From NCBI GenBank assembly GCA_964354805.1, contig CAYHBD010000016.1:1-64000 (forward strand): a stretch of DNA of 64,000 nucleotides. The letters run 5' to 3'. This document shows, in pieces, positions 17,777 to 64,000 of the stretch (position 1 is its first letter; the number at the start of each line of letters is the position of its first letter). The notes beneath the pieces are model-generated. The model searched no databases. It saw only the letters and a list, made by a program, of their open reading frames with translations, and was not told the DNA's origin. Position numbers and translations under genes: made by a program. Source of the stretch: an uncultured archaeon. GTDB lineage: Archaea; Iainarchaeota; Iainarchaeia; Iainarchaeales; GCA-2688035.

Positions 17777-17823
17777 AAGCCTTTTTCACTCCGTGAAAAA
17801 TCCTTGGGAAAATTTGCTTCGCA
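17777..17823 (+). repeat. Hairpin element copy A
   Basis: AAGCCTTTTTCAC-TCC-GTGAAAAATCCTT followed by GGGAAAATTTGCTTCGCA. Confidence 0.8.
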
Positions 17824-17870
17824 TCAGCCAACCCCTATTTTTTAATTGCTTCCTTTCGCCCGCACCCTGA

Positions 17871-18317
17871 TTACATTCTCCCTCTTTTTATTGCGCTTGT
17901 ATCTGCTGCCCTTTCAACAAGCCTTTTCTCTCCTTTCTTTCTCTCCCTTTCCTCTTCAGCTTTCTTTTCGTCCTCTGTTTTCTTTTCCTCTTTCTTTTCC
18001 TTCTTTTTCTCTTCCTTTGGCAGCTCGATTTTCTCGTTTTGCATGAAAACGTTTGCCTTGCCCTTGTCTAAAATGATTTTTATTGAAATCTTTCTTGGAA
18101 CGCTCTCCCTTCCGTGCTTCCATATTTCTTCGTTCACCTTGTTGCTCAGCAGAACAAACTCCGGATTGATTCTCGTGTGCTTTGTAACTGTTCTTTTAAT
18201 GAAAGAAATCGCCTTTATTGTCCGCTCGTTTCTCTTGAAATGGAACACATGCCTCAAGCTGATAGTAAGATTTTTTTCAATCGCAGGCAACCCCTTTTCC
18301 TTTTTCTTCTCAGCCAT
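17871..18317 (-). CDS. rpl31e: 50S ribosomal protein eL31 with charged C-terminal extension
   Basis: TISLR...RTIKAI...VNEEIWKHG..PRKI. Confidence 0.92.
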   Translation of the reverse strand: MAEKKKEKGLPAIEKNLTISLRHVFHFKRNERTIKAISFIKRTVTKHTRINPEFVLLSNKVNEEIWKHGRESVPRKISIKIILDKGKANVFMQNEKIELPKEEKKKEKKEEKKTEDEKKAEEERERKKGEKRLVERAADTSAIKRGRM

Positions 18318-18354
18318 AACCCTCACTTAAATTTTTTCCCTCGCTTGCTGTCCT

Positions 18355-18576
18355 CTACTCGTTCTGTCTCCGCAGCGCGGCTTTTTCCTTGTGCTTTCTC
18401 CGCCTGTACATTTTTCCAAGGTCAACCTCTTTCCAGGCTCTCTTTGCTTTTGGGTTCCATATTCTCTTGCCCGCCTTCTGCAGCACCCAAACAGGCGCGT
18501 TGGTGAAGCCAGGGCCTATTTTTTTCCTGCTGGCAATCAAAAAATCCTTGAATTCCTGATCCTTATTTTTTGCCAT
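18355..18576 (-). CDS. rpl39e: 50S ribosomal protein eL39 (extended)
   Basis: APVWVLQK...KRAWK; synteny. Confidence 0.8.
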   Translation of the reverse strand: MAKNKDQEFKDFLIASRKKIGPGFTNAPVWVLQKAGKRIWNPKAKRAWKEVDLGKMYRRRKHKEKAALRRQNE

Positions 18577-18686
18577 AAAAAATCACATTCATTTTTTTTT
18601 TAATAAAAATTATTTTTCCTTTTATTTCATTTTTTCCCTTGCGCATTTTTTTTTATTTTCTCCTTTTTTCCCCTGCAATTGCCCAA

Positions 18687-18992
18687 TCATTTTCTCCTTA
18701 TCGTTATTTCCCTTTTGTTGCGCAGCGTTTGCAGCAATTGCAGCAGTTGTGCTTCGCTGATTTTTTCCCGGATTTTTCCGCTGTTGTAAAGGTAAATTAT
18801 TGCCTGCACTGCCTTCATGTACAACTCGCTGTTAACAAGCTTTACATTGTTCAGCCTTTCCCTGGCAGAGTCATCAAGCAATGTTTTAACAACCCTGTTC
18901 AGCTGCGCTTCGGCTTCAAGCGCTTTCTGCCTTTCAAGCAATTGCTTGCGCAGCCCAGCGAGCTGTTCTTCTTCAGAGTTATTTTCATCCAT
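18687..18992 (-). CDS. PDCD5-like DNA-binding protein
   Basis: LLDDSARERLNNVKL...REITIRRK; synteny. Confidence 0.9.
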   Translation of the reverse strand: MDENNSEEEQLAGLRKQLLERQKALEAEAQLNRVVKTLLDDSARERLNNVKLVNSELYMKAVQAIIYLYNSGKIREKISEAQLLQLLQTLRNKREITIRRK

Positions 18993-18998
18993 TGCAAC

Positions 18999-22193: not shown

Positions 22194-22197
22194 AAAT

Positions 22198-22975: not shown

Positions 22976-22996
22976 TTGCGACCGTCGGGATTCGAA
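22976..22996 (-). repeat. 21-bp copy of the tRNA-Gly(GCC) 3' end (att-like scar)
   Basis: TTGCGACCGTCGGGATTCGAA identical to 23075-23095. Confidence 0.9.
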
Positions 22997-23038
22997 AAGC
23001 CTTTTGCACTACTGTGCAAAAGCCTTGGGAAAAAACAG
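22997..23038 (+). repeat. Hairpin element copy B
   Basis: AAGCCTTTTGCAC-TACT-GTGCAAAAGCCTT followed by GGGAAAAAACAG. Confidence 0.9.
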
Positions 23039-23075
23039 AACCCCGATAACCCATTTCGCTTCGCTCAATGGGTTT

Positions 23076-23146
23076 TGCGACCGTCGGGATTCGAACCCGA
23101 GCTACGACCTTGGCAAGGTCGAGTCCTACCACTAGACTACGGTCGC
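23076..23146 (-). tRNA. tRNA-Gly(GCC)
   Basis: Cloverleaf GCGACCG...CGACC-TTGCCAA-GGTCG...GGTTCGAATCC...CGGTCGCA. Confidence 0.95.
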
Positions 23147-23247
23147 AAGCCGTCTCGTCCGGCTGGTACGAATCGGATTGCCTTATGGCAATCCAATGTG
23201 CTCGCCCTTCGGGCTCGCGCACCCAAACGCCAGGCGATTTAAGAATT

Positions 23248-23274
23248 ATTTTGACAACAATTCTTTTAAAAGAA
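23248..23274 (-). repeat. 27-bp exact copy of the transglutaminase gene 3' end (23334-23360)
   Basis: ATTTTGACAACAATTCTTTTAAAAGAA occurs twice; both copies encode LLKELLSK*. Confidence 0.9.
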
Positions 23275-23291
23275 GCGGGATTGCATAATGT

Positions 23292-23333
23292 GCTTTCTTT
23301 CACGAGGCTTTCTTTCTTTAGAAAGAAAGGCTC
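23292..23333 (-). repeat. Hairpin element copy D
   Basis: Minus strand GAGCCTTTCTTTC-TAAA-GAAAGAAAGCCTC followed by GTGAAAGAAAGC. Confidence 0.85.
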
Positions 23334-25074
23334 ATTTTGACAACAATTCTTTTAAAAGAAACCCAATTACAACAACGCCGATTATTATGGCGATTATTAT
23401 GATGTTTTCAATTTTTGCAATTGAGGATAAATCCGGCAATTCGAATGGCAGGCTGCCTGGCTGCGATGCACTACCGTTTGGCTTTGTTTCCACCACTGCA
23501 ATCCCCTCTTTTGCTGTTACCGTTGTTTCGTAATCCAGTGAAGGGCCTTTTATTGAGACAGCGTATGGCTGCATTGAAAAGTTTTCAATCGTTATTGCAA
23601 CAACGCTTTTTTGCAGGGGTTCAACTGTTATTTCTTTTGCCTTTCCATTGCCTACCTGCACTGTTGCCGTGCCTTTTTCTGCCCCCTGGTTTTGCAGGGT
23701 TATCTCTATTTCAAGGTTTTTCCCTTTGATTAACGGCAGCAGGTCAAGCAGAACAATTTTTGCTTCCTCTGCTGCAGCAGCGCTGCTTGTTACTGTCAAT
23801 TTTTTTTCAATCGCCATATTCAATGAAACTATTTTGTATGTTCCGCTCAGGTATTCGTTCTGGGCCAGATTTTTGTTCATTCTGATTCGCCAGCTGACCT
23901 GCTGCTGTTGCAATGGCTCAAACAACAGCAATTTGTTTCGTTCCTCCATCAGCATTCCCTGCACTTCGCTTAAAGTGGTTGGAACAATCAGGTGACTGTC
24001 CAGATTGTTTTTCACTTCAATATTCAAATCAAACCAGCTATTTGCTGGAAAGCTGATTTCCTGCGCATCTATTTGCACTATGTTTGAAAAATACTCGATT
24101 TTTTCCAGTTCCACATCCACTGCTTTTTCAGAAATAGAAACATTTGCTGTTTCAGGCGTGGTAATTTTTTCAACAGCGCCTGTTGGGTCGGAAAAATTGC
24201 CTATGAAAAAGTGCGTTCCATTGATTAAGCCTGCTTCCCCAAAAGTTGGGTCGATTGCAATCCAGCCGCTTTCCGGATTGAATGCCTCAATCCAAGCGTG
24301 GTTTCCCCAGTTGCCTTCCCCAAAGCTGACGCCTGAAGCAAACCTTACAGGAATGCCCCTTGCCCTCAGAATTGCTGCCGCAAGAACACTGAATTCATCG
24401 CACGTGCCCCTTCTTTCATCCAATGTTTCAATCGCGCTTTTGATTGCAGGGTAAAATGATTTATCGTATGTTACATATCCGTGAACCCATTCTGTCACAT
24501 CCCTTGCTGTTTCAAGCCAGCTGTTTGAATCAAAGTTGTTCAAAGCAATTGTCCTTATCTGCTCGCTGTTTGATTCGACCTTTTCTGTTGGAGCAGCGAA
24601 TTCAGCAAACTGGGTTATTTTATTGCTTAAATCATACTCCTGCAAATTCCCGGGCTGGTAATTTGTTTCAACCAGTGCCTTGATTTTGTAGGTGAATGCC
24701 CCTGTTTCGTTTACCATGAAAACTGCATAGCTGTTTCCCTGCCCGTCCTGCTCTCTTGTTGCATAGATTGTTCTCCCGTTTATTGAAAGTGTTTCTTGCT
24801 GGCTAAGAATTTCTTGGTTGCTGTTTTCCATGAAAGAAAACAGCCTGATTTCAGCATTCCTCCCCTGCAAATCGCCAGTTATTTCGCCTTCCCCGCTCAA
24901 AGTAACAGTTGCCTTAACCGACTGAATTGGGGTAGTGTCCTCGATTTCAACAGCGCAGCAGTATCCAATCAGCAGCAGAAAAGCAAGTGTGGCAGCCTTT
25001 TGCTTCGCAAAAGCCTGGGGAAAAAACAGCAATTGCTTCGCAATTGCAATAAAAAAAAGTTTCCCCTTCTCCAT
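23332..25074 (-). CDS. Membrane-anchored transglutaminase-like protein
   Basis: RGTCDEFS...RARGIPVR, HAWIE, WIAIDPT; signal peptide and C-terminal TM helix. Confidence 0.9.
   Translation of the reverse strand: MEKGKLFFIAIAKQLLFFPQAFAKQKAATLAFLLLIGYCCAVEIEDTTPIQSVKATVTLSGEGEITGDLQGRNAEIRLFSFMENSNQEILSQQETLSINGRTIYATREQDGQGNSYAVFMVNETGAFTYKIKALVETNYQPGNLQEYDLSNKITQFAEFAAPTEKVESNSEQIRTIALNNFDSNSWLETARDVTEWVHGYVTYDKSFYPAIKSAIETLDERRGTCDEFSVLAAAILRARGIPVRFASGVSFGEGNWGNHAWIEAFNPESGWIAIDPTFGEAGLINGTHFFIGNFSDPTGAVEKITTPETANVSISEKAVDVELEKIEYFSNIVQIDAQEISFPANSWFDLNIEVKNNLDSHLIVPTTLSEVQGMLMEERNKLLLFEPLQQQQVSWRIRMNKNLAQNEYLSGTYKIVSLNMAIEKKLTVTSSAAAAEEAKIVLLDLLPLIKGKNLEIEITLQNQGAEKGTATVQVGNGKAKEITVEPLQKSVVAITIENFSMQPYAVSIKGPSLDYETTVTAKEGIAVVETKPNGSASQPGSLPFELPDLSSIAKIENIIIIAIIIGVVVIGFLLKELLSK
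24993..25047 (+). repeat. Hairpin element copy C, within the predicted signal peptide
   Basis: CAGCCTTTTGC-TTC-GCAAAAGCCTG followed by GGGAAAAAACAGCAATTGCTTCGCAATTGC. Confidence 0.85.
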
Positions 25075-25128
25075 CAAATCCGCACCCTTTTCCCTTTTGC
25101 CTTGGCATGCAAAGCATTGCTTCACTAA

Positions 25129-27001: not shown

Positions 27002-27394
27002 ATGGTTAGGTCATATTACTTTTTTGGCAGGAACAGGATCTTTTTGCCAAAGCTTGCCGGCGCATTTCTGCTGATTGCAGCGCTTTTCATGTTCATTGTT
27101 GCAAGCGGAAAAATGTTTGACACCTGGGATGCGTTGAAGAAATACCCCGAATGCCCAAAAGACACGCTTGCCAATACCCAGTACTGCAAGCAGAGCTTGG
27201 CTGACATAACAGGCCTGCATTTGAGACCAGACCAGCTGAAGATTTCCACAAGGCAGTTTGTTGTTACCCTGCTTCCGCCTGTGGCAGAATTGCTTTTCTG
27301 GGCAACTGTCTTCATCATTGGCTTAATCTTCTACCAGACAGGAATAGTAAAGCAAGCGCTGCCAGTGAAGCACAAGGTCAAACACGGAAAATAA
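27002..27394 (+). CDS. Hypothetical membrane protein
   Basis: Two TM helices with a Cys pair in the loop. Confidence 0.7.
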   Translation: MVRSYYFFGRNRIFLPKLAGAFLLIAALFMFIVASGKMFDTWDALKKYPECPKDTLANTQYCKQSLADITGLHLRPDQLKISTRQFVVTLLPPVAELLFWATVFIIGLIFYQTGIVKQALPVKHKVKHGK

Positions 27395-27399
27395 GCCTT

Positions 27400-27465
27400 A
27401 AGCCTTTCTTTTTTAAAAAAAGAAAGCCTTGTGAAAGAAAAAAATGCAATTGCAAAGCAATTGCA
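27400..27465 (+). repeat. Hairpin element copy E
   Basis: AAGCCTTTCTTTTTTAAAAAAAGAAAGCCTT followed by GTGAAAGAAAA...TGCAATTGC-AAA-GCAATTGCA. Confidence 0.85.
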
Positions 27466-33182: not shown

Positions 33183-33289
33183 TTTCCCATGCCTCCAAAT
33201 ATTGGTTTTCTTACAGAAAATAAGCCACTTCTCTCAATAAAAATTTAATTGCCCTGCGCCTTTTACCCCTCTTTCTTCCATTGCCGGCA

Positions 33290-35422
33290 CTATGCTGGCG
33301 TTGGGCATCCTGCTTTGTTCCATAATCTCATTCTCTGCATCAGCGCCAGCATACTCATTTCTCCCCTTCTCCATTGAGGAATGTACAGGTTCATTAATGT
33401 ATCCGTGTTAACGCATTCTGGGCAGTCGCTTGGGCAGGTAGCAAATGTCTCGCCTGTTTCACATATTCCGTTGTTGTTGCAGTTTGTCTGGCATACATTG
33501 CCTTCATCTATTTCGCCATCGCAATCATTGTCTTTGCTGTCGCAGATTTCATCGCCGATGTAGCTGGCGAATTTGTATATGTGGACAGCGTATGGGCCGA
33601 ATGTTTCGGTTAAACTGCCAGCATTTAAGCTTCCCAGCTCTTTGCCTGAGTCAATTGTTTTTTGAACACAATATTTGTTTGCTGTAATGCCTGAAAAGCT
33701 TAGGTTGCCTGCCAATGTTTTTCCTTTTCTGAGGACGTCTGCCTGCTGCGTTAATTTTAGGAATTCAAGATTATTTTCCAAGCTTATGACGCCGATTCTA
33801 ACATCCCTGGCATAGACTTTCACACCAGGGGTTGAAATTTGAATTAGTAAAAAGTAGGTTCTGGTGTGTTCTAGCTCAATTCCCCCATTGGGCAATGTAA
33901 ATTCTTGCAGCCCAGTTCCGGAAATTTGTGCTTCGCCTTCAATAATTTTTGTATCAGGAGCCGCGTCCCTGTTTGGGTCAAAGTGCTGGTCCTCATTAGG
34001 GTTGGAGTTCACATATCCCTTCTTTCCATCGCTGTAAATTGCATACTTAAAGCTTATGCCTGCTTGCGGCAGCTCAGCAAAGTAGAGGTTAAATTTGTTT
34101 ACTCTCTTGTCTTCATTTGTTACGCCTGTTGAAAAAACCGCAATGTTCAGTTTGTTGGTTAAAAGCTCTGTTGGCCCTATGGGGTTCTCACCAGTTTCTT
34201 CATCATCTTCTGCACTTTCGCAGTCTGGGTCTTTGCCATAATCTATTAAGTTATCCCAGTCATTGTCGATGCCATCACTGCATTCAAATGCAGGGAAAAC
34301 ATTGCCCAAACTGTCAAAAAAGTGCGCTTTTAAAAGCATGGTTTCGTGGCCATCTGTGTAATCAAAGTATTTTGAGGTTTCCTCTGCAACGTTTGCGCAA
34401 ATGACATAATTAGCTGTTTTTCCGTTTTCCTCTACATCCCATACCTTGCAGTTAATGTTTCCAGGTGATGTGATTGAAATCCCTGTTGAGAATGGTGAAA
34501 GAAATATATTGCTGTGCCGTTGTATATCTAGGGCAAACTTTTTGATGCCCTCAAAAAGCCTTGGCGAATCCAGAATGCTATAGTTTGAGGCTGGTAGCTC
34601 AAAATCGTCATCTCTGTCACCGTCAGCTTTTCTGAACGCATACATCACAACACCTTTTGCTCCGTGAATAATTGAATCATATGCCTGCACTCTGATTTCA
34701 TCAACTGTGGGCTCCCTCTCAAACCGCCTATATTTATCTGGCTGGTATCCGGTTATACTCAAGGCAACTATTGCAGGTTTTTCCTTCATGTTTTCTACAG
34801 CGCCCTGCATGCTTTCCCCGCAGCCTTTTACATCCATCCTGGGCACTCTATACCCTGCTTGAACTTGAGCAATGTCAACATACGGGTATTGTTCTGCTAG
34901 GTATGGCCCGTGTGCACCAGTTATTGTTGGAGTAATGGAAACAAACCTGTTGCAGAGGTCGTTGGCTCTAATTGTATCACTGTACAAGCGCACATTCCCC
35001 CTTATATCTGTATACAAATTTGGTTCTCCGTAAACTTCCCAGCCTATTACGTTTGGGTTATTGTGTTGGCTGCCTAACGTGTCCAATTCTAATTTTCCAT
35101 CTACTACCTTTAAAGCCGATTGCGCCACCATTTTAACCTTGTTTCCTACAGCCGGGTCCTTAATGTAGTCAAAAGCATATGGCGTGTCATGTATTATGAA
35201 ATTGAAATATCTGCTGTATTCGTAATCTTTGAGGGTTTCTGTGAGGGTTTTATTTAGCCCCCAGCTGTAAAAACTCCAGAATCCGATTGGAAAAAACCCC
35301 TGCCTGTTAATAGCAATGTTACCTTGGTCAATAGTGACAACAGGGCAGTATTCCGGCAGCGCGCTCGCTGCATTGGTTAAAACTAAGAAAAATAAAATGG
35401 TGGCAATTACATTGGCTTTCAT
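33290..35422 (-). CDS. Secreted clan GH-A-like protein with Asp/Cys repeats and shared C-terminal module
   Basis: Signal peptide; FFPIGFW, VIGWEVYGEPN, IIHGAKGV; EICDSKDNDCDGEIDE; YIPQWRRGEMSMLALMQR. Confidence 0.65.
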   Translation of the reverse strand: MKANVIATILFFLVLTNAASALPEYCPVVTIDQGNIAINRQGFFPIGFWSFYSWGLNKTLTETLKDYEYSRYFNFIIHDTPYAFDYIKDPAVGNKVKMVAQSALKVVDGKLELDTLGSQHNNPNVIGWEVYGEPNLYTDIRGNVRLYSDTIRANDLCNRFVSITPTITGAHGPYLAEQYPYVDIAQVQAGYRVPRMDVKGCGESMQGAVENMKEKPAIVALSITGYQPDKYRRFEREPTVDEIRVQAYDSIIHGAKGVVMYAFRKADGDRDDDFELPASNYSILDSPRLFEGIKKFALDIQRHSNIFLSPFSTGISITSPGNINCKVWDVEENGKTANYVICANVAEETSKYFDYTDGHETMLLKAHFFDSLGNVFPAFECSDGIDNDWDNLIDYGKDPDCESAEDDEETGENPIGPTELLTNKLNIAVFSTGVTNEDKRVNKFNLYFAELPQAGISFKYAIYSDGKKGYVNSNPNEDQHFDPNRDAAPDTKIIEGEAQISGTGLQEFTLPNGGIELEHTRTYFLLIQISTPGVKVYARDVRIGVISLENNLEFLKLTQQADVLRKGKTLAGNLSFSGITANKYCVQKTIDSGKELGSLNAGSLTETFGPYAVHIYKFASYIGDEICDSKDNDCDGEIDEGNVCQTNCNNNGICETGETFATCPSDCPECVNTDTLMNLYIPQWRRGEMSMLALMQRMRLWNKAGCPTPA

Positions 35423-35829
35423 TAATTACTTTTAACGCTTTTCCCCTTTTTATTTCTATAGTCTTCAATCGCTTTCCGCAGGCCGTCCATTGAAAGAACA
35501 GAGCAATGCATTTTTTGCGGCGGCAGGCCATCGAGCTGGGCTGCAATCTTTCCCTTGTCGATTTCAAGCGCTTCCTGCAAAGTCATTCCCTTAACCATTT
35601 CGGTCAGCTTGCTGCTGGTGGCAATAGCTGCAACGCACCCGAAAGTTTTCACTTTAATATCCTTAATTATCTCTTCCCCCTTCTTGTTCTTAGCAACCTT
35701 AATGTAAACCCACATCAAATCGCCGCAGACAGGATTGCCGACTTTTCCCAATCCATCCGGCTTTTGTATTTCACCAATATTATGCGGGTGCCTGAATTCA
35801 TCCAAAACTTTATCCGAATACATTTTCAT
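35422..35829 (-). CDS. iscU: Fe-S scaffold IscU/NifU
   Basis: GNPVCGD, FGCVAAIA, KMHCS. Confidence 0.95.
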   Translation of the reverse strand: MKMYSDKVLDEFRHPHNIGEIQKPDGLGKVGNPVCGDLMWVYIKVAKNKKGEEIIKDIKVKTFGCVAAIATSSKLTEMVKGMTLQEALEIDKGKIAAQLDGLPPQKMHCSVLSMDGLRKAIEDYRNKKGKSVKSN

Positions 35830-40003: not shown

Positions 40004-40176
40004 GTTTTTTTTTCAATTGAAATTCAGCGTAAAAAATAGGTTGCCCAGAATTTAAATAGCTTTCTGTTTAAGGGCGCTACATAATTGGTTTTTTTCTTTC
40101 AATTTATCTTTTGGGGTTGTGCTCTTTTTGATTGCAGGGAAATTATTTAAAGCAGAACCCACCATCAAATCTATCG

Positions 40177-40761
40177 ATGGCCAAGATAGCTATTCAAAGT
40201 GTTGACCTGCTTGTTCACCCTTTTTTTGAGATTTCAACAGCAGCAGGTTACAATGAGTTATCCCCAAAGCAGAGGCAATCCCTTGGGCGCCTTGTGTCAG
40301 TTTGGGCCAGGGCAATAAAAAGCGCCAAATTGAAAGAGGGCAACTTGTTTATTTTAATAAGCTACCCGCTTGCAAACCCCGAATGCCGCAAGGCACTTGG
40401 GCAATTGAAGCGACTTGCAACAAAAGAGCTTGGCTCTGCAAAATTCAGAGAAACGCCATTTAGCTTAAGCCAGATTATAAAAGAAAGGCACCGGCCAGTT
40501 TCATTAGGAAATCCCCCATTCAACAACATCCTGTTTTTGAACAAAGAGTCAATAAGGATAAATCCAATGGGCGAAAGAAAAGGAAAATGCCCTATTATAC
40601 AAGCCGGGCTGCTGCGGTCAGCCCTGCTAAAAGAAGGGCTGTCAGTAAACATTACGAGAAGAAAAAATCTTTCCGGTGCAAAAACCCGTTCCGTGCGGAA
40701 AAAGATGGTTAAGCCTGCGCTTTCAATGCGACGCAAAAATAGGGCATTCAGGCCAAAGTAG
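40177..40761 (+). CDS. Hypothetical basic protein
   Basis: ORF; VDLLVHPFF near the N-terminus; basic tail. Confidence 0.7.
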   Translation: MAKIAIQSVDLLVHPFFEISTAAGYNELSPKQRQSLGRLVSVWARAIKSAKLKEGNLFILISYPLANPECRKALGQLKRLATKELGSAKFRETPFSLSQIIKERHRPVSLGNPPFNNILFLNKESIRINPMGERKGKCPIIQAGLLRSALLKEGLSVNITRRKNLSGAKTRSVRKKMVKPALSMRRKNRAFRPK

Positions 40762-40773: not shown

Positions 40774-40817
40774 AAGCCTTTTTTGCTGTTGCAAAAAAGC
40801 CTTGGGAAAAAAGCAGC
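40774..40817 (+). repeat. Hairpin element copy F
   Basis: AAGCCTTTTTTGC-TGTT-GCAAAAAAGCCTT followed by GGGAAAAAAGCAGC; flanked by CAGCGGAA repeats. Confidence 0.9.
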
Positions 40818-42207: not shown

Positions 42208-44761
42208 AGAGAAAGAGGAAATCGGCACAATCATTTCAACGCTTGACTCGCCTAGCCCGAGCAGCGTTGACTTTGTTGTAAGCAAGGGCATTGTGCATCG
42301 GGGCCAGTTTGTTGAAATGGACTGCAACCAGGGAACAATGGTTGCGCTTGTGAATGATGTAATCAAAACAAACCGCTACTTTGAGAGAGCTGACTCAGTG
42401 AAAGAGTTTGAAAGCAGTGGCTCGGCTTTATTCGAGCAGTTTCCAACAGCGGAATGGGAATACCTTGTTGCAAAAACAAGGCCCCTCGGTGTTTTTGCGC
42501 CAGACGGTTCAACAAAGAGGCCGACCTTTCCACCTTCCCCCGGATCAAGGGTGAGAATTGCAGAAAGGGAATCGCTGCAGCACTTCCTCAACTTTGATAC
42601 CGAAGCAGGGCTGCACTTGGGAGAAATAGAGCACCACCAGCTGCCCGTGAAGCTGAACATGTCAGCGCTATTCAAAAAACACCTTGCAATATTGGCTCTC
42701 AGCGGAGCGGGAAAAAGCTACCTGGTTTCTGTTCTGCTTGAGGAATTGCTTGAGAGAAAAAAAGAGCAGGGCAGGATTGCCGCGATTATTTTAGACCCAC
42801 ACGGGGAATACAGCAGCTTTGCAGAGCCGGTGAAGGGAAAAGAGTTCAAGGACTACAGCGGCAAAACAAAGCTGGTTAGGGCAAGGGATATTCAGATCGG
42901 CGTGCCGAAGCTGAGCGTTGGCGTTGTTGCAGGAATAATTCCAGGCTTGAGCGAGCCGCAGAAGAGGGATTTGAACAGGTTAATAGGCAAATTGAAGGAT
43001 GAAATGCGGCAGGGCATTGGCCCTTTTGATTTGAATGATTTGAGGGATGCGATTGCAAGGGATGAAGGAATCAAAGAGAACAGCAAGGGTCCGCTAATCA
43101 GCTGGATTGATAGTTTGCGGGAAATGCATTTGTTTGGGAAAACGGATAATCCAAGTGTTGTTGACTTGGTGAAGCCGGGGCATTTGACAGTGATTGATTT
43201 GAGCGAACTGATTGATTTGCGGAAAAAGCAGATAATTGTAAGCTATTTCGCGCAGCGCCTTTTTTACGAGAGAAGGGAGAAGAATGTTCCGCCATTCCTG
43301 CTTGTTCTGGAGGAAGCGCACCAGTTCTGCCTGAGTGAAGACACGGAGTTGCTTACTTCCAAGGGGTGGATGCGATACACGCAGGTAAGGAAGGGGGATA
43401 AAGCCTTTTCATACAATACGCGTGAAAATAGGCTGGAATTGAATCAAATCAAAAAAATTCTTATAAGAGAGCATACTGGTGATCTGGTAAAGTTGTTCAA
43501 TGAAGACAGCATAGACTCGTTGGTTACCGGTGACCATCGTGTTTTGTGTTGCACTAGGACAACAGGCAAAGATCGAAAGTGGAAGTGGTCTGGGCCAAAG
43601 TTTATTCCTGCCAAGTGTTCCCCTAGTGGAATGAAAGTGCCTGTCGCGGCACCAATGCACTCTAATTCAAAATGTGACTTGGATACTGATTTGATAAAAG
43701 TGTTCGGTTGGATAATAACTGATGGAACATTGCATTCTTTCCGTGGCCGGCATTCCTATTATGAAATATTTCAATCAAAAGTAAAGGGCAAGATTTTAAA
43801 CGAGATGAAAGAAGTCATTACGCGCCGTTTTTCTGAAGCTCGCATCCATTCAAGAGAAAGGGCAGACCGGTTTTTAAATTCCAGGCGGATTAAAAGCAGT
43901 GAAGAGTTCATTTTTTATTTGGGCGCAAAAGCTAGCCGCGAAATCAGGCCTTGGCTGGTGGATCAGACTCATCGTATCCCAAGAAAATTTCTGGAAAAAG
44001 CGTCCTATTCGCAATTAAAAATATTATTTGATGCACTTGTGCAGGGGGACGGTCACGTACAAACAACAAAAAACAACTACAAATATGTAATGTTCTATGC
44101 CGGCAAAAACACTGAGCTGGCTGATGATTTTCAAGAGCTTTGTGCAAAACTCGGGTTTTCCGCTGTTATTAAAAAAGTTCCTTCAAATGGGCAGACCAAA
44201 GTTCTGGTTTCGTTCAAAAGAAAGTTTGCCTATATTAGAAAAACTAAAAAAGAATTTTTTTCGGGAAAAGTCTGGGACATAACTATAAAGCACGGGGCTT
44301 TTGTAGCTAGGCGAAACGGAAAAGTTTTCATAACTGGCAATTGCCCAGAGATGGCAAAAGCAGAAACAGCAATTTCCCGCTCCATTATCAGGACGATTGC
44401 AAGAGAGGGAAGAAAATTCGGCGCATCTCTTTGCCTTGTTTCACAGAGACCTGTGCAATTGGATACAACAGCGCTTAGCCAATGCAACACGCATATTATT
44501 TTGCGGATCACAAACCCCTATGATTTGAAGCACATTGGCGAGAGCAGCGAAGGCTTGGACAGCAAAAGCCTTGACATGATTACCTCTTTGCGCGTTGGAG
44601 AAGCCCTGATTGTCGGCGAGGCAACCCACTACCCTGTTTTCTTCAAAGTAAGGCAGAGGAAAAGCGCTCCAAGCAGGCACGAAATCTCGTTGGAACAGGC
44701 TGCAATCCAATTTGAGGAAGGGGAAGAAAAACAGGAAAAAGAAACAGAGGAACTGCTGTAA
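42200..44761 (+). CDS. herA: HerA helicase containing an intein
   Basis: HLAILALSGAGKS, LEEAHQF, AREGRKFG, SQRP. Confidence 0.95.
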   Translation: MAEEKEEIGTIISTLDSPSPSSVDFVVSKGIVHRGQFVEMDCNQGTMVALVNDVIKTNRYFERADSVKEFESSGSALFEQFPTAEWEYLVAKTRPLGVFAPDGSTKRPTFPPSPGSRVRIAERESLQHFLNFDTEAGLHLGEIEHHQLPVKLNMSALFKKHLAILALSGAGKSYLVSVLLEELLERKKEQGRIAAIILDPHGEYSSFAEPVKGKEFKDYSGKTKLVRARDIQIGVPKLSVGVVAGIIPGLSEPQKRDLNRLIGKLKDEMRQGIGPFDLNDLRDAIARDEGIKENSKGPLISWIDSLREMHLFGKTDNPSVVDLVKPGHLTVIDLSELIDLRKKQIIVSYFAQRLFYERREKNVPPFLLVLEEAHQFCLSEDTELLTSKGWMRYTQVRKGDKAFSYNTRENRLELNQIKKILIREHTGDLVKLFNEDSIDSLVTGDHRVLCCTRTTGKDRKWKWSGPKFIPAKCSPSGMKVPVAAPMHSNSKCDLDTDLIKVFGWIITDGTLHSFRGRHSYYEIFQSKVKGKILNEMKEVITRRFSEARIHSRERADRFLNSRRIKSSEEFIFYLGAKASREIRPWLVDQTHRIPRKFLEKASYSQLKILFDALVQGDGHVQTTKNNYKYVMFYAGKNTELADDFQELCAKLGFSAVIKKVPSNGQTKVLVSFKRKFAYIRKTKKEFFSGKVWDITIKHGAFVARRNGKVFITGNCPEMAKAETAISRSIIRTIAREGRKFGASLCLVSQRPVQLDTTALSQCNTHIILRITNPYDLKHIGESSEGLDSKSLDMITSLRVGEALIVGEATHYPVFFKVRQRKSAPSRHEISLEQAAIQFEEGEEKQEKETEELL
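43328..44341 (+). mobile_element. Intein (338 aa) with LAGLIDADG homing endonuclease
   Basis: CLSEDTELLTSKGW, VTGDHR, GWIITDG, ALVQGDG, VWDITI...FITGN/C. Confidence 0.93.
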
Positions 44762-47463: not shown

Positions 47464-49074
47464 ATGGCTCCCACCCCCGACAGTTTTTGGTTAACGGATG
47501 TTAAATATTTGGAGGACAAAAGGGCGGTTCTGGCTGATTTCTCCAGGCTCAACATTAGGAGAAATTTATGCCTGCCCTTCGTTCCCTCTTTTTTTGCAAG
47601 CAAAAAACGCGTTAAAAAAGAGCAGCTGCTTTCCGCTCTATCTGCATTGGGAAAACAGCCCTTTGAATTAAACGAAGAAAAAAGCGCATTCAAAATAACC
47701 GCTGCCACTTTCGCTGATTTGAACAAAGCTGCAAACGCGCTTTTTCAGGAAATGAATTTTTCGCCGATTGTCCTGCAGCCGGAGCGGCAGTTTCTGCTGC
47801 AGCAAAACTGGAGCTATTTTGACTGCTTTCACTTTACTTCAGAAAAAGAACCGCAGAAAATTGAATGCAATGAATTGCCTGGCATAAATCTGCCTTTCTT
47901 CTCAGAGCCATTGAATGAAACAGTTCAGCAGCTTCTGGGCGTGGATGCGAACAGCGCAATGCGCATCCTTGAATCAATTGCATTAAGCAATGCGCTGCGT
48001 TTGCCTTTAACCAATTTATCGCCTCGCAATGACACGCATGCCGAGGCCCTGTTTGAGAATATTTTCTGGTTTAATGGAGAAAGCAGGCACTTGCCGTGCA
48101 AAAGGCTAGGCTCACCACCCGCATGGCATGTGCCTTCTTTTTCTAATGCAACGTTTTTCGATTTCAGCCAGTTGTGGCCGACGATTCTGACAAAGCCGTT
48201 CTATAACGTTTCCCTTGAAACAATTGACTGCCACTGCTGCAAGCCTTTTGCTGTTGCAAAAGCCTCCTTGCAAAACCAAGGGTTTTGCGAGGTCCCGCAA
48301 AAGCAAAGCTTTTGCAGGATGGGAAAAGCAGCCTTCGGCGAGCCAATTGGAATTGATGCCAGAAACATTCTGCCGAGCAGCACTGTTTCGGCTGAATTCC
48401 TGCAGGACGGCTTTTATTTTGACAGTTCGTTCCCTGAATTCGCCGCAAGGTTTCACGCAGAAAATGAGGGCAGGGAGAGGAGGGAGCGGAGAATGAGGGA
48501 ATTCTGCCTGCCGTTTCCCCCAATCGGGCCCTTTGACAGGGGCAGCATTGCTGCAATTCCGTTGAATGATGCAATTGCTTTAACCCAGAGAAACAAGGCA
48601 AGAATAATTTCGTTGAATGAAACGCACTGGTTTTGCCTAAAGCAGGAATCTGCTGTGGCAAAGCAAATCATCTTGTTGCAGGCAAAAATAGCATTGATTG
48701 AAAAGGAAGCCAATGCAACCGAGAGCGTTTTTTTGAAAGAGCACGGATTGAATGCAATCCAGCTGTTGAATAACGACTGCAATTTTCTTTTCAATAAAGC
48801 AAAGGCAAAGGTTTGCGCACAGCTTCTCTCCTCAATTGCACAGCATTTGCAGGATAGAAACAGCGCTTTCTTTGATGAAAACCTGGGCAATGCCGTTGCA
48901 GGCATTGCTGCCCTTATTTTAAGCGAATTCCAGCTATTCTCGCAGCAGCAGGGCAGCAGGGTTGTTCTGCTGCAGCAGGGAAACGCTCTTGTAAAAAGCG
49001 AAAAGCCACTGAGCTTAATTGAGCAGTTCAGCATGGTGCAGAAAATCCCTGCTTTGATCAGGCTGCGGAATTGA
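47464..49074 (+). CDS. Degenerate (likely inactive) family B DNA polymerase, PolB2-like
   Basis: FDFSQLWPTIL...NVSLETIDCHCC resembles motif A of PolB2; no DTDS motif. Confidence 0.7.
   Translation: MAPTPDSFWLTDVKYLEDKRAVLADFSRLNIRRNLCLPFVPSFFASKKRVKKEQLLSALSALGKQPFELNEEKSAFKITAATFADLNKAANALFQEMNFSPIVLQPERQFLLQQNWSYFDCFHFTSEKEPQKIECNELPGINLPFFSEPLNETVQQLLGVDANSAMRILESIALSNALRLPLTNLSPRNDTHAEALFENIFWFNGESRHLPCKRLGSPPAWHVPSFSNATFFDFSQLWPTILTKPFYNVSLETIDCHCCKPFAVAKASLQNQGFCEVPQKQSFCRMGKAAFGEPIGIDARNILPSSTVSAEFLQDGFYFDSSFPEFAARFHAENEGRERRERRMREFCLPFPPIGPFDRGSIAAIPLNDAIALTQRNKARIISLNETHWFCLKQESAVAKQIILLQAKIALIEKEANATESVFLKEHGLNAIQLLNNDCNFLFNKAKAKVCAQLLSSIAQHLQDRNSAFFDENLGNAVAGIAALILSEFQLFSQQQGSRVVLLQQGNALVKSEKPLSLIEQFSMVQKIPALIRLRN
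48241..48340 (+). repeat. Composite hairpin element copy G, in frame in the PolB2-like gene
   Basis: AAGCCTTTTGC-TGTT-GCAAAAGCCT, two 27-nt hairpins, then TGGGAAAAGCAGC. Confidence 0.9.
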
Positions 49075-61195: not shown

Positions 61196-61264
61196 TCAAT
61201 CAACGCCTGCCTGCAATTTCATCCTTTTTCATTTCAATTCAATTATTTTGCCGCCCTTTTTTTC

Positions 61265-61906
61265 CTACAGTTCAATTTTCTCCCATTTCAATTTGCCGTC
61301 CAATTCAAGCAGCAGGGCTTTCCCATCTTTCACTGCGCCAACATTGATGCTGGTTGTTGCACCGATTTTTTCTTCGCCAGGTGCTTCGTGGCAGTGCCCG
61401 CACAAGTGCAGCGCCGGCTGGTGTTTTTCAATTATTTCCCTGACTGATTTGCTCCCTATATGCTTTCCAATGTGCGCGAAATCAAGCTTTGTTCCATACG
61501 GCGGAACGTGGGTTAAAAGAATCGCGTTTTTTTCTCCCTTAATTAATTTTTGCAGAGTTTCCTTTATTTCCTGCTCGCTGAAAAGAAACCTGCCTGGGTC
61601 ATTGTGCATGCTTCCGCCGAATCCAACCAGCGTCCATTTCCCAATGCATAGTTTTTTCGCGTGCAGTGAAATTCCCTGCCTTTCAATCTCTTGCTGCACC
61701 TCTGGCAATTCAAAGTTTCCTGCAAAAGCAAGCAAGCGCGCCGGCTTTAGCGCATCAATCACCTGTTTTGCTTCCTTTGCTCCACCCATTTGGGTTAAAT
61801 CCCCAAGCAGGATAACCAAACCAATTTTTCTGTTATGTATAATTTCATTTGCTTTTTCCAATTTTTCCCTGTTGCTATGTATATCGCTCAAAATCAGTGC
61901 AATCAT
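61265..61906 (-). CDS. Calcineurin-like metallophosphoesterase
   Basis: SDIH, GD, GN, THVPP, CGHCHE. Confidence 0.92.
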   Translation of the reverse strand: MIALILSDIHSNREKLEKANEIIHNRKIGLVILLGDLTQMGGAKEAKQVIDALKPARLLAFAGNFELPEVQQEIERQGISLHAKKLCIGKWTLVGFGGSMHNDPGRFLFSEQEIKETLQKLIKGEKNAILLTHVPPYGTKLDFAHIGKHIGSKSVREIIEKHQPALHLCGHCHEAPGEEKIGATTSINVGAVKDGKALLLELDGKLKWEKIEL

Positions 61907-62042
61907 ATTGGGAACCTTTTTTAATTTTCTGTGGCATATATAGTTTATGTATTGCCACTTTTTTTGATGAAACTTTTTCCAAAAGTTTCTTGAAGTGGTA
62001 TATTATATTGTTTGTTGTTAATTTATTTAAAGGGGTGCTAGT

Positions 62043-62825
62043 TTGTTTAAAAAATTGCTGGCGTTGGCTATTCTGCTGCTGTTTTGCAATAGTGTTTTTG
62101 GTACTGTTTTTCTGGTTGAGCCAGTTGATGCAAAAGTGCAGAGCGGCGAAGAGATTGCTTTGGGCAAGGCAGCCAAGGGTGAAACTGTTCGCATTGTTCT
62201 AAAAAAGAAAAGCGAGCTTTCAGTTGAGTGGAACAGCATTGCTGTTGGGCAATTGCCTCAGGGCTGGAAAAGCAGCAGTGTTGAAACAGACAAGACCCTG
62301 ATTGCCCTTATTTCAATTCCTGCAAATGCTGTTGTGAGCACGCAGAGGATTCAGTTTGTTTTAAGCAACAAGAGCCAGCCTTTGTTTGCTGAAAGCTTTT
62401 TCGGCAACCTGAGTGTTCGGGATAACCTGCTCACTGTTACAATTGACAACCTCAACCAGCAGACTATCGTTGGAGAAAAGGTTCGCTTCAGGCTGATTGC
62501 AAACAATGATTCAATCGCTGAGCACACTGTTTCCATTGCAAGCGATTTGCCTTCTTATTGGCTGCAGCCTTTTTCAGTGAAATTGAATCCGTCTGCTGCG
62601 ACAGAAATTGATTTGAATGTCAACGCTGTTGCTTACGGTGAAAGAAGATTCAATCTGATTGTGAGCTCAACGCATAATGAAAAGAAATTTGTTTTCCCTG
62701 CTTCGCTCAGCGTAAACCCAACGCTGAAAGGAAAATACACCGCTGCCCTGTACGGCTTTCCCTTCTTTTCCCCTTCACTGATCAGCAATTACCTGGTAAA
62801 CGCCTTCCTTGCGCTGCTTTCGTGA
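62043..62825 (+). CDS. Hypothetical secreted beta-rich protein
   Basis: Signal peptide; hydrophobic C-terminus. Confidence 0.75.
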   Translation: MFKKLLALAILLLFCNSVFGTVFLVEPVDAKVQSGEEIALGKAAKGETVRIVLKKKSELSVEWNSIAVGQLPQGWKSSSVETDKTLIALISIPANAVVSTQRIQFVLSNKSQPLFAESFFGNLSVRDNLLTVTIDNLNQQTIVGEKVRFRLIANNDSIAEHTVSIASDLPSYWLQPFSVKLNPSAATEIDLNVNAVAYGERRFNLIVSSTHNEKKFVFPASLSVNPTLKGKYTAALYGFPFFSPSLISNYLVNAFLALLS

Positions 62826-62851
62826 AGCCTTTCTTTAGAAAAGAAAGCCTT
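62825..62851 (+). repeat. Hairpin element copy H
   Basis: AAGCCTTTCTTT-AGA-AAAGAAAGCCTT overlapping a stop codon. Confidence 0.85.
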
Positions 62852-62967
62852 GGCACAATGTCAAGCAATGAAATAAAAAAGAATATTTTGATGCTTGACA
62901 TTGTGGGGAAAGAAATAATAAATTGGTATAAAAACATTGCAGCATATTCAAATTGAAGTGGTTCCTG

Positions 62968-64000
62968 TTGGATACTTTGCGCGCATACTGCCTGGATTTG
63001 ATTCATTCAATTGAATCAGGGGAAATAAAAACAAGGCAGCAGCTTAATGAAAAAAAGATTGAATTGTGCAAAAAGCACAGCCTGCCCCAAATGCCAAAAA
63101 ACCCGGTAATTCTTTCCTTTGCAAAGCCTTTTTTCCTCACGGAAAAAAGCCTTGGGAAATTCGCTTCGCAAGAAAAAAGTGAAACTCTTTTGAGGCTGCT
63201 TTCAGTCAAGCCTACAAGGGGCCTGAGCGGGATTGCAATTGTTGCAGTAATGACAAAGCCGCACAAATGCCCTGGAAAATGCATTTACTGCCCAAGCTCG
63301 CTTCTCCCTGGTAAGCGCACGCCAAAAAGCTACACCGGAAGAGAGCCTGCAACAATGCGGGCAATAAGCGCAAACTTTGACCCAGACCAGCAAATCAAGG
63401 ACAGGCTGAGGCAGCTGCAGGAAGCAGGGCATCCTACAAACAAAATTGAATTAATTGTAATGGGCGGCACCTTCCTGAGCCAGCAGCTTTCTTTTCAAAA
63501 AAAATTCATGCTGAGTTGCCTGAATGCATTTAATGGGCAGAAAGCAAAAACAATTGCCGCTGCTGCAAAGGCTGCTGAAAGCGCTGCCAACAGAATCACG
63601 GGCATTACCTTTGAAACAAGGCCTGATTTTTGCGGAAAAAAAGAAATAAGCAACCTGCTTTCTTTTGGCGGCACAAGATGCGAGCTTGGAGTGCAAACAA
63701 TTTACGATAGCGTTTATAAAAAAATTAACAGAGGGCACACAATTGCGGATGTAATCAATGCAACCCAGCTGCTGAAAGACAGCGCTTTCAAAGTAACCTA
63801 CCATTACATGCCGGGCCTGCCTGGCGTGAGCTTCCGGGAAGACGAGCAGGCATTGCGAAAAATTTTTTCTTGCCCAGAATTCAAGCCCGATAGCCTGAAG
63901 ATTTACCCCTGCCTGGTGATTGAGGGCACTGAGCTGTTCAGGCAATGGCAGCGCGGTTCATATGACCCTTTTTCAACAGAGAAAGCGGTTAAGCTGCTTG
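62968..64000 (+). CDS. elp3: Elp3 radical SAM/tRNA acetyltransferase (truncated by the window end)
   Basis: Hand translation from TTG 62968: KPTRGLSGIAIVAVMTKPHKCPGKCIYCP, KSYTGREPA, MGGTF, ETRPD, ELGVQ, INRGH, LKIYP. Confidence 0.95.
   Translation, partial: MDTLRAYCLDLIHSIESGEIKTRQQLNEKKIELCKKHSLPQMPKNPVILSFAKPFFLTEKSLGKFASQEKSETLLRLLSVKPTRGLSGIAIVAVMTKPHKCPGKCIYCPSSLLPGKRTPKSYTGREPATMRAISANFDPDQQIKDRLRQLQEAGHPTNKIELIVMGGTFLSQQLSFQKKFMLSCLNAFNGQKAKTIAAAAKAAESAANRITGITFETRPDFCGKKEISNLLSFGGTRCELGVQTIYDSVYKKINRGHTIADVINATQLLKDSAFKVTYHYMPGLPGVSFREDEQALRKIFSCPEFKPDSLKIYPCLVIEGTELFRQWQRGSYDPFSTEKAVKLL
63124..63170 (+). repeat. Hairpin element copy I, in frame in elp3
   Basis: AAGCCTTTTTTCC-TCAC-GGAAAAAAGCCTT followed by GGGAAATTCGCTTCGCA. 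Confidence 0.9.

Follow-up and report, generated by a model that had tools for sequence, protein, structure and literature searches.

Among the closest described systems are BoxC, PIT and TM_ECO, bacterial intrastrand-triplex repeats, and the review that covers them states that RNA does not form triplexes of the purine motif (Holder et al. 2015, PMC4666352). Like the archaeal repeat analysed here, they are short, dispersed and multi-copy, run as pyrimidine, purine and mirror purine (class II) with a complementary strand of the pyrimidine-motif class, are independent of gene orientation and are tied to local genome variability (PMC4666352). They are G/C-rich with short loops (PMC4666352), whereas the archaeal repeat is A/T-rich. 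The archaeal repeat also differs in that a conserved 5-bp foot, which contains a C-C opposition, separates its duplex from the putative third strand, in often carrying a GCTTCGC mini-hairpin, and in its archaeal hosts. Its gain and loss between close relatives is shown below, and it occurs in frame in proteins and at the start of tRNA introns.

REP/REPIN sequences are imperfect palindromes of 20-40 nt with a conserved stem base, single or clustered, mostly intergenic and present in about a hundred copies per genome; a RAYT gene co-occurs with them, flanked by its own REPs. The archaeal repeat matches them as an imperfect palindrome of this size, in its conserved stem base, in its occurrence as singles or clusters, in its mostly intergenic placement and in its copy number. 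To our knowledge, however, REPs neither duplicate their target nor occur in frame within genes, and the resident Y1 genes of the archaeal genome, unlike RAYT, have unrelated ends and are not tracked by the copies. IS200/IS605 ends and their miniature derivatives (PATEs) resemble the repeat in their asymmetric, subterminal imperfect hairpins and implied ssDNA logic, and the genome does have a resident IS200-type transposase, but the repeat is unrelated to the resident IS ends, has no fixed target tetranucleotide and is accompanied by target duplications.

Rickettsia palindromic elements (RPE), bacterial palindromic repeats of 100-150 nt reportedly described by Ogata et al. in 2000, are said to insert in frame into protein-coding genes and also into RNA genes, with the added peptides tolerated by the host protein. 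The archaeal repeat is likewise palindromic and inserted both in frame in proteins and in RNA genes, but it is 40-60 nt long and of putative triplex type; we know of no mirror third tract in RPE. Archaeal tRNA introns at 37/38, with intron transposition in Thermoproteales, were reportedly described by Fujishima et al. in 2010. As there, a single genome has related sequences in many of its tRNA introns, and close relatives differ by intron gain or loss; the repeat differs in lying mostly outside tRNAs, in its DNA target duplications and in being translated inside genes. We conclude that the nine hairpins analysed here probably represent one family of non-coding mobile DNA repeats of about 40-60 nt with a putative fold-back-triplex anatomy, perhaps spread without a fixed-stagger transposase or HUH enzyme.

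Nine copies in the window and the wider family

The window is a stretch of 64,000 nt (contig CAYHBD010000016.1, assembly GCA_964354805.1, forward strand, positions 1 to 64,000) from a 1.38-Mb genome that is 88.5% complete. An initial annotation had placed nine copies in DNA of an archaeal host; relatives of the host bear the label Candidatus Diapherotrites, and all nine copies were recovered at their positions, that at 23304 on the minus strand. The copies and their associated duplications are as follows.

17777..17824, plus strand: copy 1, foot-hairpin-foot (17777-17806), then GGGAAAA link/flank and GCTTCG tail; adjoins the start codon of gene 17111..17776 (minus strand)
22976..22996, no strand: orphan 21-nt duplicate of the tRNA-Gly 3' end (functional one at 23075-23095); the pair flanks copy 2
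22997..23074, plus strand: copy 2, element 22997-23038, spacer and second small hairpin 23047-23073; abuts the tRNA-Gly(GCC) 3' end in reverse orientation to the tRNA
23248..23274, no strand: downstream member of a 27-nt target-site duplication, the true end of the gene being the other member, 23334-23360
23275..23333, minus strand: copy 3, 59-nt unit of foot-hairpin-foot (23304-23333), GTGAAAGAAAG mirror flank and 18-nt tail
24993..25047, plus strand: copy 4, then a GCAATTGC-TTC-GCAATTGC hairpin; antisense in the N-terminal region of a transglutaminase-like gene (23332..25125, minus), read in frame
27393..27444, plus strand: copy 5, solo foot AAGCCTT overlapping the TAA stop of gene 27002..27394, then a full element with interrupted arm and matching mirror flank
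40774..40813, plus strand: copy 6, 14 nt past the stop of gene 40132..40761; bracketed by CAGCGGAA (40767-40774 and 40814-40821)
48241..48344, plus strand: copy 7, inside gene 47464..49074; hairpin 48241-48266 opens a modular in-frame array of 99-100 nt (33 residues), with a second hairpin module (CCTTGCAAAACC...) in place of the 3' link
62825..62915, plus strand: copy 8, hairpin 62825-62851 overlapping the TGA stop of gene 62043..62825; GCCTT and the mirror flank GGGAAAGAAA (62906-62915) are separated by a palindromic element of 54 nt whose inverted ends are 14 nt long (62854-62867 and 62892-62905)
63125..63169, plus strand: copy 9, hairpin, GGGAAA and GCTTCGC tail; in-frame insertion of 45 nt (15 residues) close to the N terminus of an Elp3-like radical-SAM gene (62953..)

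The annotated contexts were borne out, with stop codons at 62825, 27400 and 23304, a start codon at 17777, tRNA-Gly adjoining 22997, and intragenic copies in either orientation at 24993, 48241 and 63124. The GGGAAAA or GTGAAAGAAA and GCTTCGC continuations are present, and the single copy described as having an extra mismatch is 17777, with T instead of G in its right foot.

We counted 8 matches to the exact pattern AGCCTTT-N6-30-AAAGCCT in the window; 100 dinucleotide-preserving shuffles gave an expectation of 0.11, and none of them reached 8. Across the whole genome the pattern has 97 matches, and a covariance-model scan returned 106 copies at E<=0.01. The foot pattern also turned up elsewhere in the family, in 19 of 22 other genomes and with as many as 137 copies, whereas controls with the reversed pattern stayed near zero; foot and link are kept in at least seven genera, but the arms vary. 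The repeat is specific to one family of small DPANN archaea of the Iainarchaeota/Diapherotrites type. Arrays and nested copies are common.

Stem covariation and the mirror flank

The 5' part of the unit is the foot (nAGCC / GCCTn'), which contains the C-C opposition; the middle is a T-rich arm, a loop and a complementary A-rich arm; and the 3' part is a 3-nt link (GGG, GTG or GCG) followed by a purine tract that mirrors the A-rich arm. A GCTTCGC-type mini-hairpin often closes the unit. We assessed covariation in 78 distinct copies from the window and one relative of another genus, in an alignment fitted to the covariance model. The stems covary, as had been proposed, with 99.7% of cells paired and compensatory changes in 7 of 12 pairs; the covariation score is 0.287 against 0.091 in shuffles, and 0 of 500 shuffles reach it. 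The closing pair covaries as well (A-T 72, C-G 3, G-C 2, G-T 1).

The C-C opposition at position 4, which the initial annotation took to be invariant, is present in all nine copies, but in the family it is dominant (about 90%) rather than constant: in this genome the foot AGCC/GCCT occurs 80 times against 8 for the fully paired AGCC/GGCT. Copies with G for the right-arm C have C for the flank G. The triples (l4,r2,f2) are (C,C,G) in 55 cases and (C,G,C) in 6, the triples (l3,r3,f1) are (G,C,G) in 62 and (A,T,A) in 18, and among 150 matches listed from five relatives the combination GCC+GGG occurs 134 times, GGC+GCG 12 times and mixed forms 4 times. The C-C position covaries with the 3' link, and we suggest that it is part of a fold-back triplex junction and not a recognition mismatch. 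With the flank folded back, the right-arm C would be able to pair with a link G, and the foot could therefore switch between two pairings. The 3-bp foot beyond C-C is unpaired in most centroid folds, and the GTG link (5-6 copies) and an ACACC/GCTGT+ACC subfamily fit a simple C-G swap poorly.

The 3' flank mirrors the purine arm and changes jointly with both arms. In interrupted arms the first G is equidistant in arm and flank in 18 of 26 copies here and in 17 of 22 in another genus, the failures in this genome being mostly copies that have no flank, and the mirror identity of arm and flank exceeds their direct identity throughout. Arm/arm/flank triples are (T,A,A) in 56 cases, (C,G,G) in 11 and discordant in about 6 (Fisher 1e-8, relatedness ignored). 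Since the two arms and the flank covary, as a fold-back (intrastrand) triplex requires, the unit probably adopts such a structure, class II on the element strand and class IV on the other. Linked changes inherited by descent within subfamilies could also be a source of this covariation, and the weakness of A/T-rich purine-motif triplexes counts against the triplex reading.

Gain, loss and insertion of copies

The repeat is still moving, being gained and lost between species of one genus, and its presence differs between 90%-identical relatives at most sites. This agrees with its annotation as a mobile, non-autonomous and structure-conserved element: a comparison of filled and empty sites revealed a same-genus relative with empty sites for 17777 and 23304 and a second relative with an empty site for 48241, the structure is conserved, and the element is non-autonomous because it contains no ORF. 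At the orthologous site in the same-genus genome L071 all 48 nt of copy 1 are missing, and CAT stands at both ends of the copy. The first two bases of copy 3 create a new TGA stop for the transglutaminase-like gene; the same-genus relative lacks the element and has a single copy of the 27-nt sequence, so the duplication arose with the insertion. Copy 7 is missing in 12 family orthologues and in a 92%-identical same-genus protein, where the empty site is visible in the DNA, and in a 91%-identical relative it has an extra 39 nt nested in its hairpin loop. Copy 9 is missing from 21 of 21 family orthologues, and a 37-nt stretch of it (hairpin and link, 63123-63159) recurs without change in a unit that the same-genus relative has at another locus. 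For copy 4, the same-genus homologue has the extra 18 residues and three homologues of other genera lack them. Copy 2 is common to the same-genus relative, there with a 5-nt deletion in the hairpin tip; the site of copy 5 holds a different array of three units in that relative; and copy 6 is shared with the same relative, in which an extra 58-nt unit lies directly 5' and 94 nt are inserted between GCCT and GGG. Insertions found in the relative only lie in nurA (with a 7-nt duplication) and after tRNA-Val; one forms a tRNA-Gly intron, and others are nested within copies 40774 and 48241.

Insertion takes place at the DNA level, with target duplications of variable length. Those of recent insertions measure 0-1, 3, 4, 7, 8, 21, 27 and 28 nt (about eight events), with no constant target word seen 5' of the element among them, and anchored duplications of >=13 nt flank 6 of 89 copies, whereas about 0.1% of random sites have them. 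The foot forms a sharp 5' end, the left duplication copy stopping exactly at the first foot base in four cases; the 3' end is ragged, with unique tails for which no donor was found in the genome. In-gene inserts of 45, 99, 54, 48 and 39 nt are multiples of 3 nt, contain no stops and keep the frame; the in-gene copies are translated. Older copies are frequent targets of new insertions, which enter their hairpin loop or foot/link junction. We think it more likely that spread relies on breaks or stalls at single-stranded stretches of the folded DNA, whose repair with microhomology would copy an element from another place, than on a fixed-stagger transposase or an HUH enzyme.

Alternative routes of spread and function

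A dedicated, still unrecognised trans-acting nuclease or transposase could instead recognise the folded foot and link, its sloppy second-strand cutting giving variable duplications. We regard this as possible but doubtful: the constancy of foot and link across genera with variable arms, the sharp 5' end with its four exact duplication boundaries, the identical hairpins at different loci and the targeting of older loops would all suit such an enzyme, but no candidate gene was found in this 88.5%-complete genome, the 3' tails are ragged, unique and have no donor in it, and duplication lengths scatter over 0-28 nt. The initial annotation favoured analogy with HUH substrates (REP/RAYT, IS200/IS605) or attC sites, that is, an ssDNA hairpin moved in trans by a Y1 enzyme or by attC-like recombination, with C-C as the recognition mark. 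Two Y1_Tnp genes do lie outside the window (C35:614-967 and C13:1382-1729), the hairpin foot is conserved with its fixed mismatch, hairpin loops hold nested copies on their 3' side, and neighbouring loci in this genome are co-oriented in 42 of 58 cases, a clustering that replication-linked ssDNA insertion could yield. However, the Y1 genes are flanked by their own G+C-rich IS200-type hairpins, unlike the element, and TnpB was not found. Copy number does not track the enzyme: among 41 relatives, genomes with 40, 36, 28 and 23 copies have no Y1 found (one of them is 91% complete), whereas one with 9 copies has 7 Y1 matches. A copy-rich relative does not show the co-orientation on its largest contig (among the matches listed), and copy orientation corresponds to neither GC skew nor third-position skew. 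HUH transposition uses a fixed target word and leaves no target duplication, in contrast to the 3-28-nt duplications and the lack of a constant 5' word here. The analogy is therefore not sustained, and we consider this route improbable.

That the copies are selected functional signals and not selfish DNA (transcription terminators whose T-runs lie on both strands, elements for RNA stability, or marks for processing tRNA and mRNA ends) also seems unlikely. Many do lie where genes end, at the 3' ends of tRNAs or on the first bases of tRNA introns, different genera share the conserved foot, and T5-7 runs, at which archaeal RNA polymerase can terminate, are present on both strands. Against this, copies stand in frame and in either orientation in conserved genes such as Elp3 and nurA, their orientation to flanking genes is mixed (20 same, 13 opposite), their presence varies at most sites between the 90%-identical relatives, arrays and nesting are common, and the purine-motif triplexes would not form in RNA (PMC4666352). 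Spread at the RNA level as an intron, by excision and re-ligation through the tRNA splicing endonuclease and ligase and copying back into DNA, strikes us as highly improbable: a reverse transcriptase was not found, there are target duplications in the DNA, the in-gene copies behave as if translated and not spliced, and both orientations occur outside tRNAs. The tRNA introns themselves nevertheless speak in its favour, as a tRNA-Gly(GCC) intron of this type is present in the same-genus relative and missing here, and 13-14 of 24 predicted tRNA introns start with this type of hairpin, all in the sense orientation. Standing outside our main account of DNA-level insertion, the single orientation of these 13-14 copies could reflect an RNA-level or strand-specific constraint.

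Copy number, stem and foot of the element

We assessed the nine sites in the window at which the initial annotation had placed hairpins, and all nine hold them as described. A unit of the family comprises a foot (nAGCC/GCCTn'), a T-rich arm, a loop, an A-rich arm, a 3-nt link and a purine flank. The exact pattern AGCCTTT-N6-30-AAAGCCT has eight matches in the window; the expectation from dinucleotide-preserving shuffles, a comparison proposed by that annotation, is 0.11, and 0 shuffles reached eight. The ninth copy, 17777 (copies are named by their window start), is the one said to have an extra mismatch, and has T for G in its right foot.

The window is positions 1-64000 of contig C16 in a 1.38-Mb assembly of 49 contigs that is 88.5% complete; the source given for homologues of its proteins is Candidatus Diapherotrites archaeon. 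In the whole genome the exact pattern has 97 matches, and a covariance model trained on six copies of the window gives 106 at E<=0.01, scattered across more than 30 contigs and lying within genes and introns. The wider scan that had been suggested covered 22 other genomes of the family and found the foot in 19, at up to 137 copies each, with reversed-pattern controls near zero; outside this family but within the order, the foot is rare or lacking. A literature search returned no account of the element in archaea.

Stem covariation was analysed in 78 distinct copies, taken from the window and from 380 kb of DNA of a relative that belongs to another genus. In this alignment, which was fitted to the model, 99.7% of cells pair, 7 of 12 pairs show compensatory changes, and the covariation score of 0.287 was reached by 0/500 shuffles, which scored 0.091. 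The closing pair covaries as the initial annotation had claimed, with A-T, C-G and G-C all seen. Its invariant C-C opposition within the foot is the dominant state and not an invariant one, as the fully paired AGCC/GGCT also occurs: among all T-run/A-run hairpins of the genome, 80 have AGCC/GCCT and 8 have AGCC/GGCT.

Replacement of the right-arm C by G is accompanied by replacement of G by C at the middle base of the link. At this level (left arm, right arm, link), copies of this genome read (C,C,G) 55 times and (C,G,C) 6 times, and among the 150 matches listed from five relatives there are 134 GCC+GGG, 12 GGC+GCG and 4 mixed combinations. The adjacent level covaries too, with 62 (G,C,G) and 18 (A,T,A) in this genome. 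Two bases of the right foot therefore have a choice of partner, the left foot or the link. Folding of the DNA, which covered the duplex part only, leaves the 3 bp of foot beyond the C-C unpaired in most centroid structures. If the C-C simply resulted from direct repetition of the 7-mer AAGCCTT, the compensatory closing pairs and the link covariation would be left unexplained. A base triple of one G and two C at the mismatch level would fit the main type and the GGC+GCG variant and is a partial account; in strict form it fails for copies with a GTG link and for a subfamily with the foot ACACC.

That sister subfamily has the foot ACAGC/GCTGT, fully paired, or ACACC/GCTGT, with C opposite C, followed by the link ATC or ACC and a mirror flank like that of the element. 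It is found on contigs C2 (3202), C10 (64343), C11, C16 (53480), C38 (2347), C9, C39 and C42; the window copy, at 53475-53520, lies directly after a tRNA-Arg gene.

The mirror flank and the intrastrand-triplex reading

The purine tract after the link is a mirror image of the purine arm and not a direct copy of it, and mirror identity always equals or exceeds direct identity. Where the arm is interrupted by G, arm and flank have their first G at equal distance in 18 of 26 copies of this genome, the non-matching copies mostly lacking the flank, and in 17 of 22 copies of another genus. At least five arm types occur, each with a matching flank. In the model alignment, left arm, right arm and flank read (C,G,G) in 11 cases and (T,A,A) in 56, with few discordant triples (Fisher 1e-8, uncorrected for relatedness). 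As in PIT class II repeats, a pyrimidine tract, a complementary purine tract and a third purine tract mirroring the second stand on one strand, and the three change jointly between copies.

To our knowledge, no copying process produces mirror repeats, so the simplest account of these patterns is selection for a flank that folds back along the purine arm. The fold would be an intrastrand triplex; by the nomenclature of PMC4666352, this strand would be of class II and its complement of class IV. On the comparative evidence assembled here, the best account of the element is a mobile fold-back-triplex repeat, closest in form to bacterial BoxC/PIT repeats and, in its in-frame insertions, to Rickettsia palindromic elements (RPE).

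If this reading holds, the family would provide comparative evidence, from about 100 natural copies per genome, for a three-stranded DNA fold under selection in living cells, and would be the first repeat family of triplex type in archaea. In DPANN genomes the copies also mislead annotation, giving rise to spurious ORFs, to false gene starts and to orphan copies of gene ends.

Gain and loss of copies between relatives

We compared window 15.5-60.8 kb with two loci of one 216-kb metagenome contig from a relative of the same genus, which is syntenic with the window and 80-94% identical over most of the stretch. Family orthologues were used for copies within genes.

Element sites in the window and in the syntenic relative
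17777: empty in the relative
22997: common to both; flanked by a duplicated 21-nt tRNA-Gly end
23304, minus strand: empty in the relative
24993: common to both; within 18 extra residues (54 nt) of a transglutaminase-like gene, confined to this genus
27400: filled in both, with differing arrays
40774: common to both; the relative has a further 58 nt on the 5' side and 94 nt between GCCT and GGG
48241: first part of a 99-100-nt, 33-residue insertion in gene 47464..49074, missing in 12 family orthologues; the relative has a further 39 nt nested in the loop
62825: split at the foot/link junction by a 54-nt palindromic element
63124: 45-nt, 15-residue insertion in an Elp3-like gene, missing in 21/21 family orthologues
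nurA, relative only: 48-nt in-frame insertion with a 7-nt duplication
tRNA-Val, relative only: ~115 nt inserted after the gene
tRNA-Gly(GCC), relative only: 54-nt intron that starts with a foot variant, opposite window 23110 (gene 23075-23147, minus strand)

Empty orthologous sites, which the initial annotation had proposed to look for, are thus found, for example at 17777 and 23304, and its view of the family as a non-autonomous mobile element defined by structure is supported. Species of one genus differ at most element sites. The 48241 site is hypervariable within the genus: one protein, 92% identical, has no insertion and is encoded by DNA with a bare site, a 91%-identical protein has 13 additional residues, and an 89%-identical protein has a different array. 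The 37 nt of window 63123-63159, comprising hairpin and link of copy 63124, are identical to the extra unit of the relative at the 40774 locus. The in-gene inserts measure 45, 99, 54, 48 and 39 nt, all multiples of three. As with RPE, copies stand in frame in conserved protein genes and are missing from orthologues (Elp3, gene 47464..49074, the transglutaminase-like gene and nurA).

The comparison also revealed other differences. In the reverse complement of the relative's DNA (L071), two tandem 40-nt units with the foot variant TTAAAC/GTTTAA lie at 15879-15959, directly before a start codon and opposite window 32313, where this genome is empty. The herA (DUF87) gene at window 43328-44341 carries a 1014-nt LAGLIDADG intein-like insertion that is missing in the 91%-identical gene of the relative. 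Two blocks of ~2.2 kb, at 33183-35440 and 37408-39637, are missing in the syntenic contig; one contains a 710-residue ORF without a Pfam match and the other an H+-pyrophosphatase gene.

The anticodon loop of tRNA-Gly(GCC) is uninterrupted in this genome. ARAGORN with intron search predicts 42 tRNAs, 24 of them with introns, and 13-14 of the 24 predicted introns start with an element-type hairpin, all in sense orientation. One and the same unit is found between genes, at the start of tRNA introns and as added peptide in conserved enzymes, and would offer a concrete, testable source for the origin of archaeal tRNA introns and protein insertions.

Outside tRNAs, 20 copies have the same orientation as neighbouring genes and 13 the opposite, by a crude ORF-based gene set. 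An archaeal transcription terminator would be an oligo-T signal that follows a gene in sense orientation and ends its transcripts; oligo-T runs do occur on both strands of the element, but copies also lie inside essential genes in both orientations. Adjacent loci share their orientation in 42 of 58 cases (binomial p ~0.0009). Orientation has no relation to local GC/AT skew, gene strand or third-codon-position skew, and clustering is absent on the largest contig of a copy-rich relative; we therefore do not use it as evidence for replication-linked insertion. Between 17 and 108 kb of contig C16, 14 successive loci share one orientation whatever the gene strand, with a switch at 138 kb, a pattern for which compositional skew does not account.

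Mode of spread and neighbouring modules

Flanking sequences were examined for traces of insertion. At 23248-23274, the 27-nt copy of the gene end is a genuine target duplication, since the relative contains this sequence once and lacks the element. A 28-nt duplication lies on another contig, and further duplications measure 8, 7, 4, 3 and 0-1 nt. In the four longest, the end of the left copy coincides with the first base of the foot. Anchored duplications of at least 13 nt accompany 6 of 89 copies, compared with ~0.1% of random sites; at so few copies, long duplications are not the rule, and it is variation in length that is general. At its 3' end the element is ragged: the core stops after the flank, and 9-18 unique bases follow, often with GCTTC; for the tails of 22997, 23304 and a copy at contig C9:82689, no donor loci were found in the genome. 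Junctions often have A, AA or AAG in common with the foot. Nested insertions, of the element and of two other small modules, hit the hairpin loop or the foot/link junction.

The initial annotation had proposed an HUH or attC mechanism, with an enzyme encoded outside the window. Two genes for Y1_Tnp, the IS200-type HUH transposase domain, do lie outside it (C13:1382-1729 and C35:614-967). Both are bordered by their own G+C-rich IS200-type hairpins, unlike the element; a miniature element derived from IS200/IS605 would have ends identical to the left and right end hairpins of a resident IS, and this element does not. Nor are the two genes bordered by inverted copies of the repeat, as a REP/REPIN system with RAYT would require. 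Neither gene has a TnpB partner, and searches of this genome found no TnpB and no reverse transcriptase. Across 41 relatives, Y1_Tnp does not track copy number: no Y1 match was found in genomes carrying 40, 36, 28 and 23 copies, one of which is 91% complete, and genomes in which Y1 matched 7 and 5 times have 9 copies apiece. This lack of co-occurrence between repeat and Y1 (RAYT) is only suggestive, because the genomes are incomplete. A more divergent full-length Y1 group (E 1e-10 to 1e-13) is present in four relatives and absent from this genome.

IS200/IS605 elements land on the 3' side of one particular tetra- or pentanucleotide and do not duplicate their target; the element shows neither trait, with duplications of 3, 4, 7, 8, 21, 27 and 28 nt and varying 5' neighbours. 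HUH and attC chemistry would account neither for duplications of variable length nor for the absence of any constant word on the 5' side, and on these points, as on Y1 ends and copy numbers, the proposal is not supported. Integron attC sites bound gene cassettes arrayed next to an integrase gene and attI, whereas the copies are dispersed, and the two tyrosine recombinase genes of the genome lie elsewhere. A classical MITE has the terminal inverted repeats of an autonomous IS and a duplication of fixed length. The element differs in both, being an asymmetric unit of hairpin and flank with no parent IS seen and duplications of 0-28 nt.

Variable duplications, junction microhomology, ragged 3' ends and a preference for the single-stranded parts of older copies instead favour movement by repair of breaks or stalls over an enzyme with a fixed stagger, and suggest a repeat that may spread by DNA structure and host repair and not by an enzyme of its own. 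It is also possible that a dedicated, as yet unrecognised enzyme moves it. For the repair reading we can propose a full scheme, which we advance tentatively and consider improbable as a whole. The element would fold into an intrastrand DNA triplex in the cell, and its single-stranded loop and foot/link junction would be places of DNA breaks or replication stalls, so that each copy would be both donor and landing pad. The family would then multiply without a transposase, through microhomology-guided copying during repair, and as it spread, tRNA introns and protein loops would arise anew in these reduced archaeal genomes.

Several other small modules adjoin or interrupt the element.

Modules neighbouring the element (C, contigs of this genome)
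Window 62852-62905: second palindromic element, ~52-54 nt, with 14-nt inverted ends (CACAATGYCAAGCA ...)
Window 48267-48344, C8:3921, C30:20011, C32:13013 and C35:43545: third module, CCTTGCAAAACC-N3-GGTTTTGCGAGG with a competing CGCAAAAGC tract, in place of the GGG link in five copies
Window 25029-25047: example of a GCAATTGC-TTC-GCAATTGC hairpin, a type that often adjoins the element

The CACAATGYCAAGCA-ended element has at least 10 copies, also on C8, C9, C10, C16 and C30, most of them precisely at the boundary of GCCTT and GGG in a triplex-type copy, with a few elsewhere or in tandem. In the relative, the third module is inserted in copy 40774 at the same junction. The palindromic 8-mer GCAATTGC has ~317 sites genome-wide, compared with ~21 expected.
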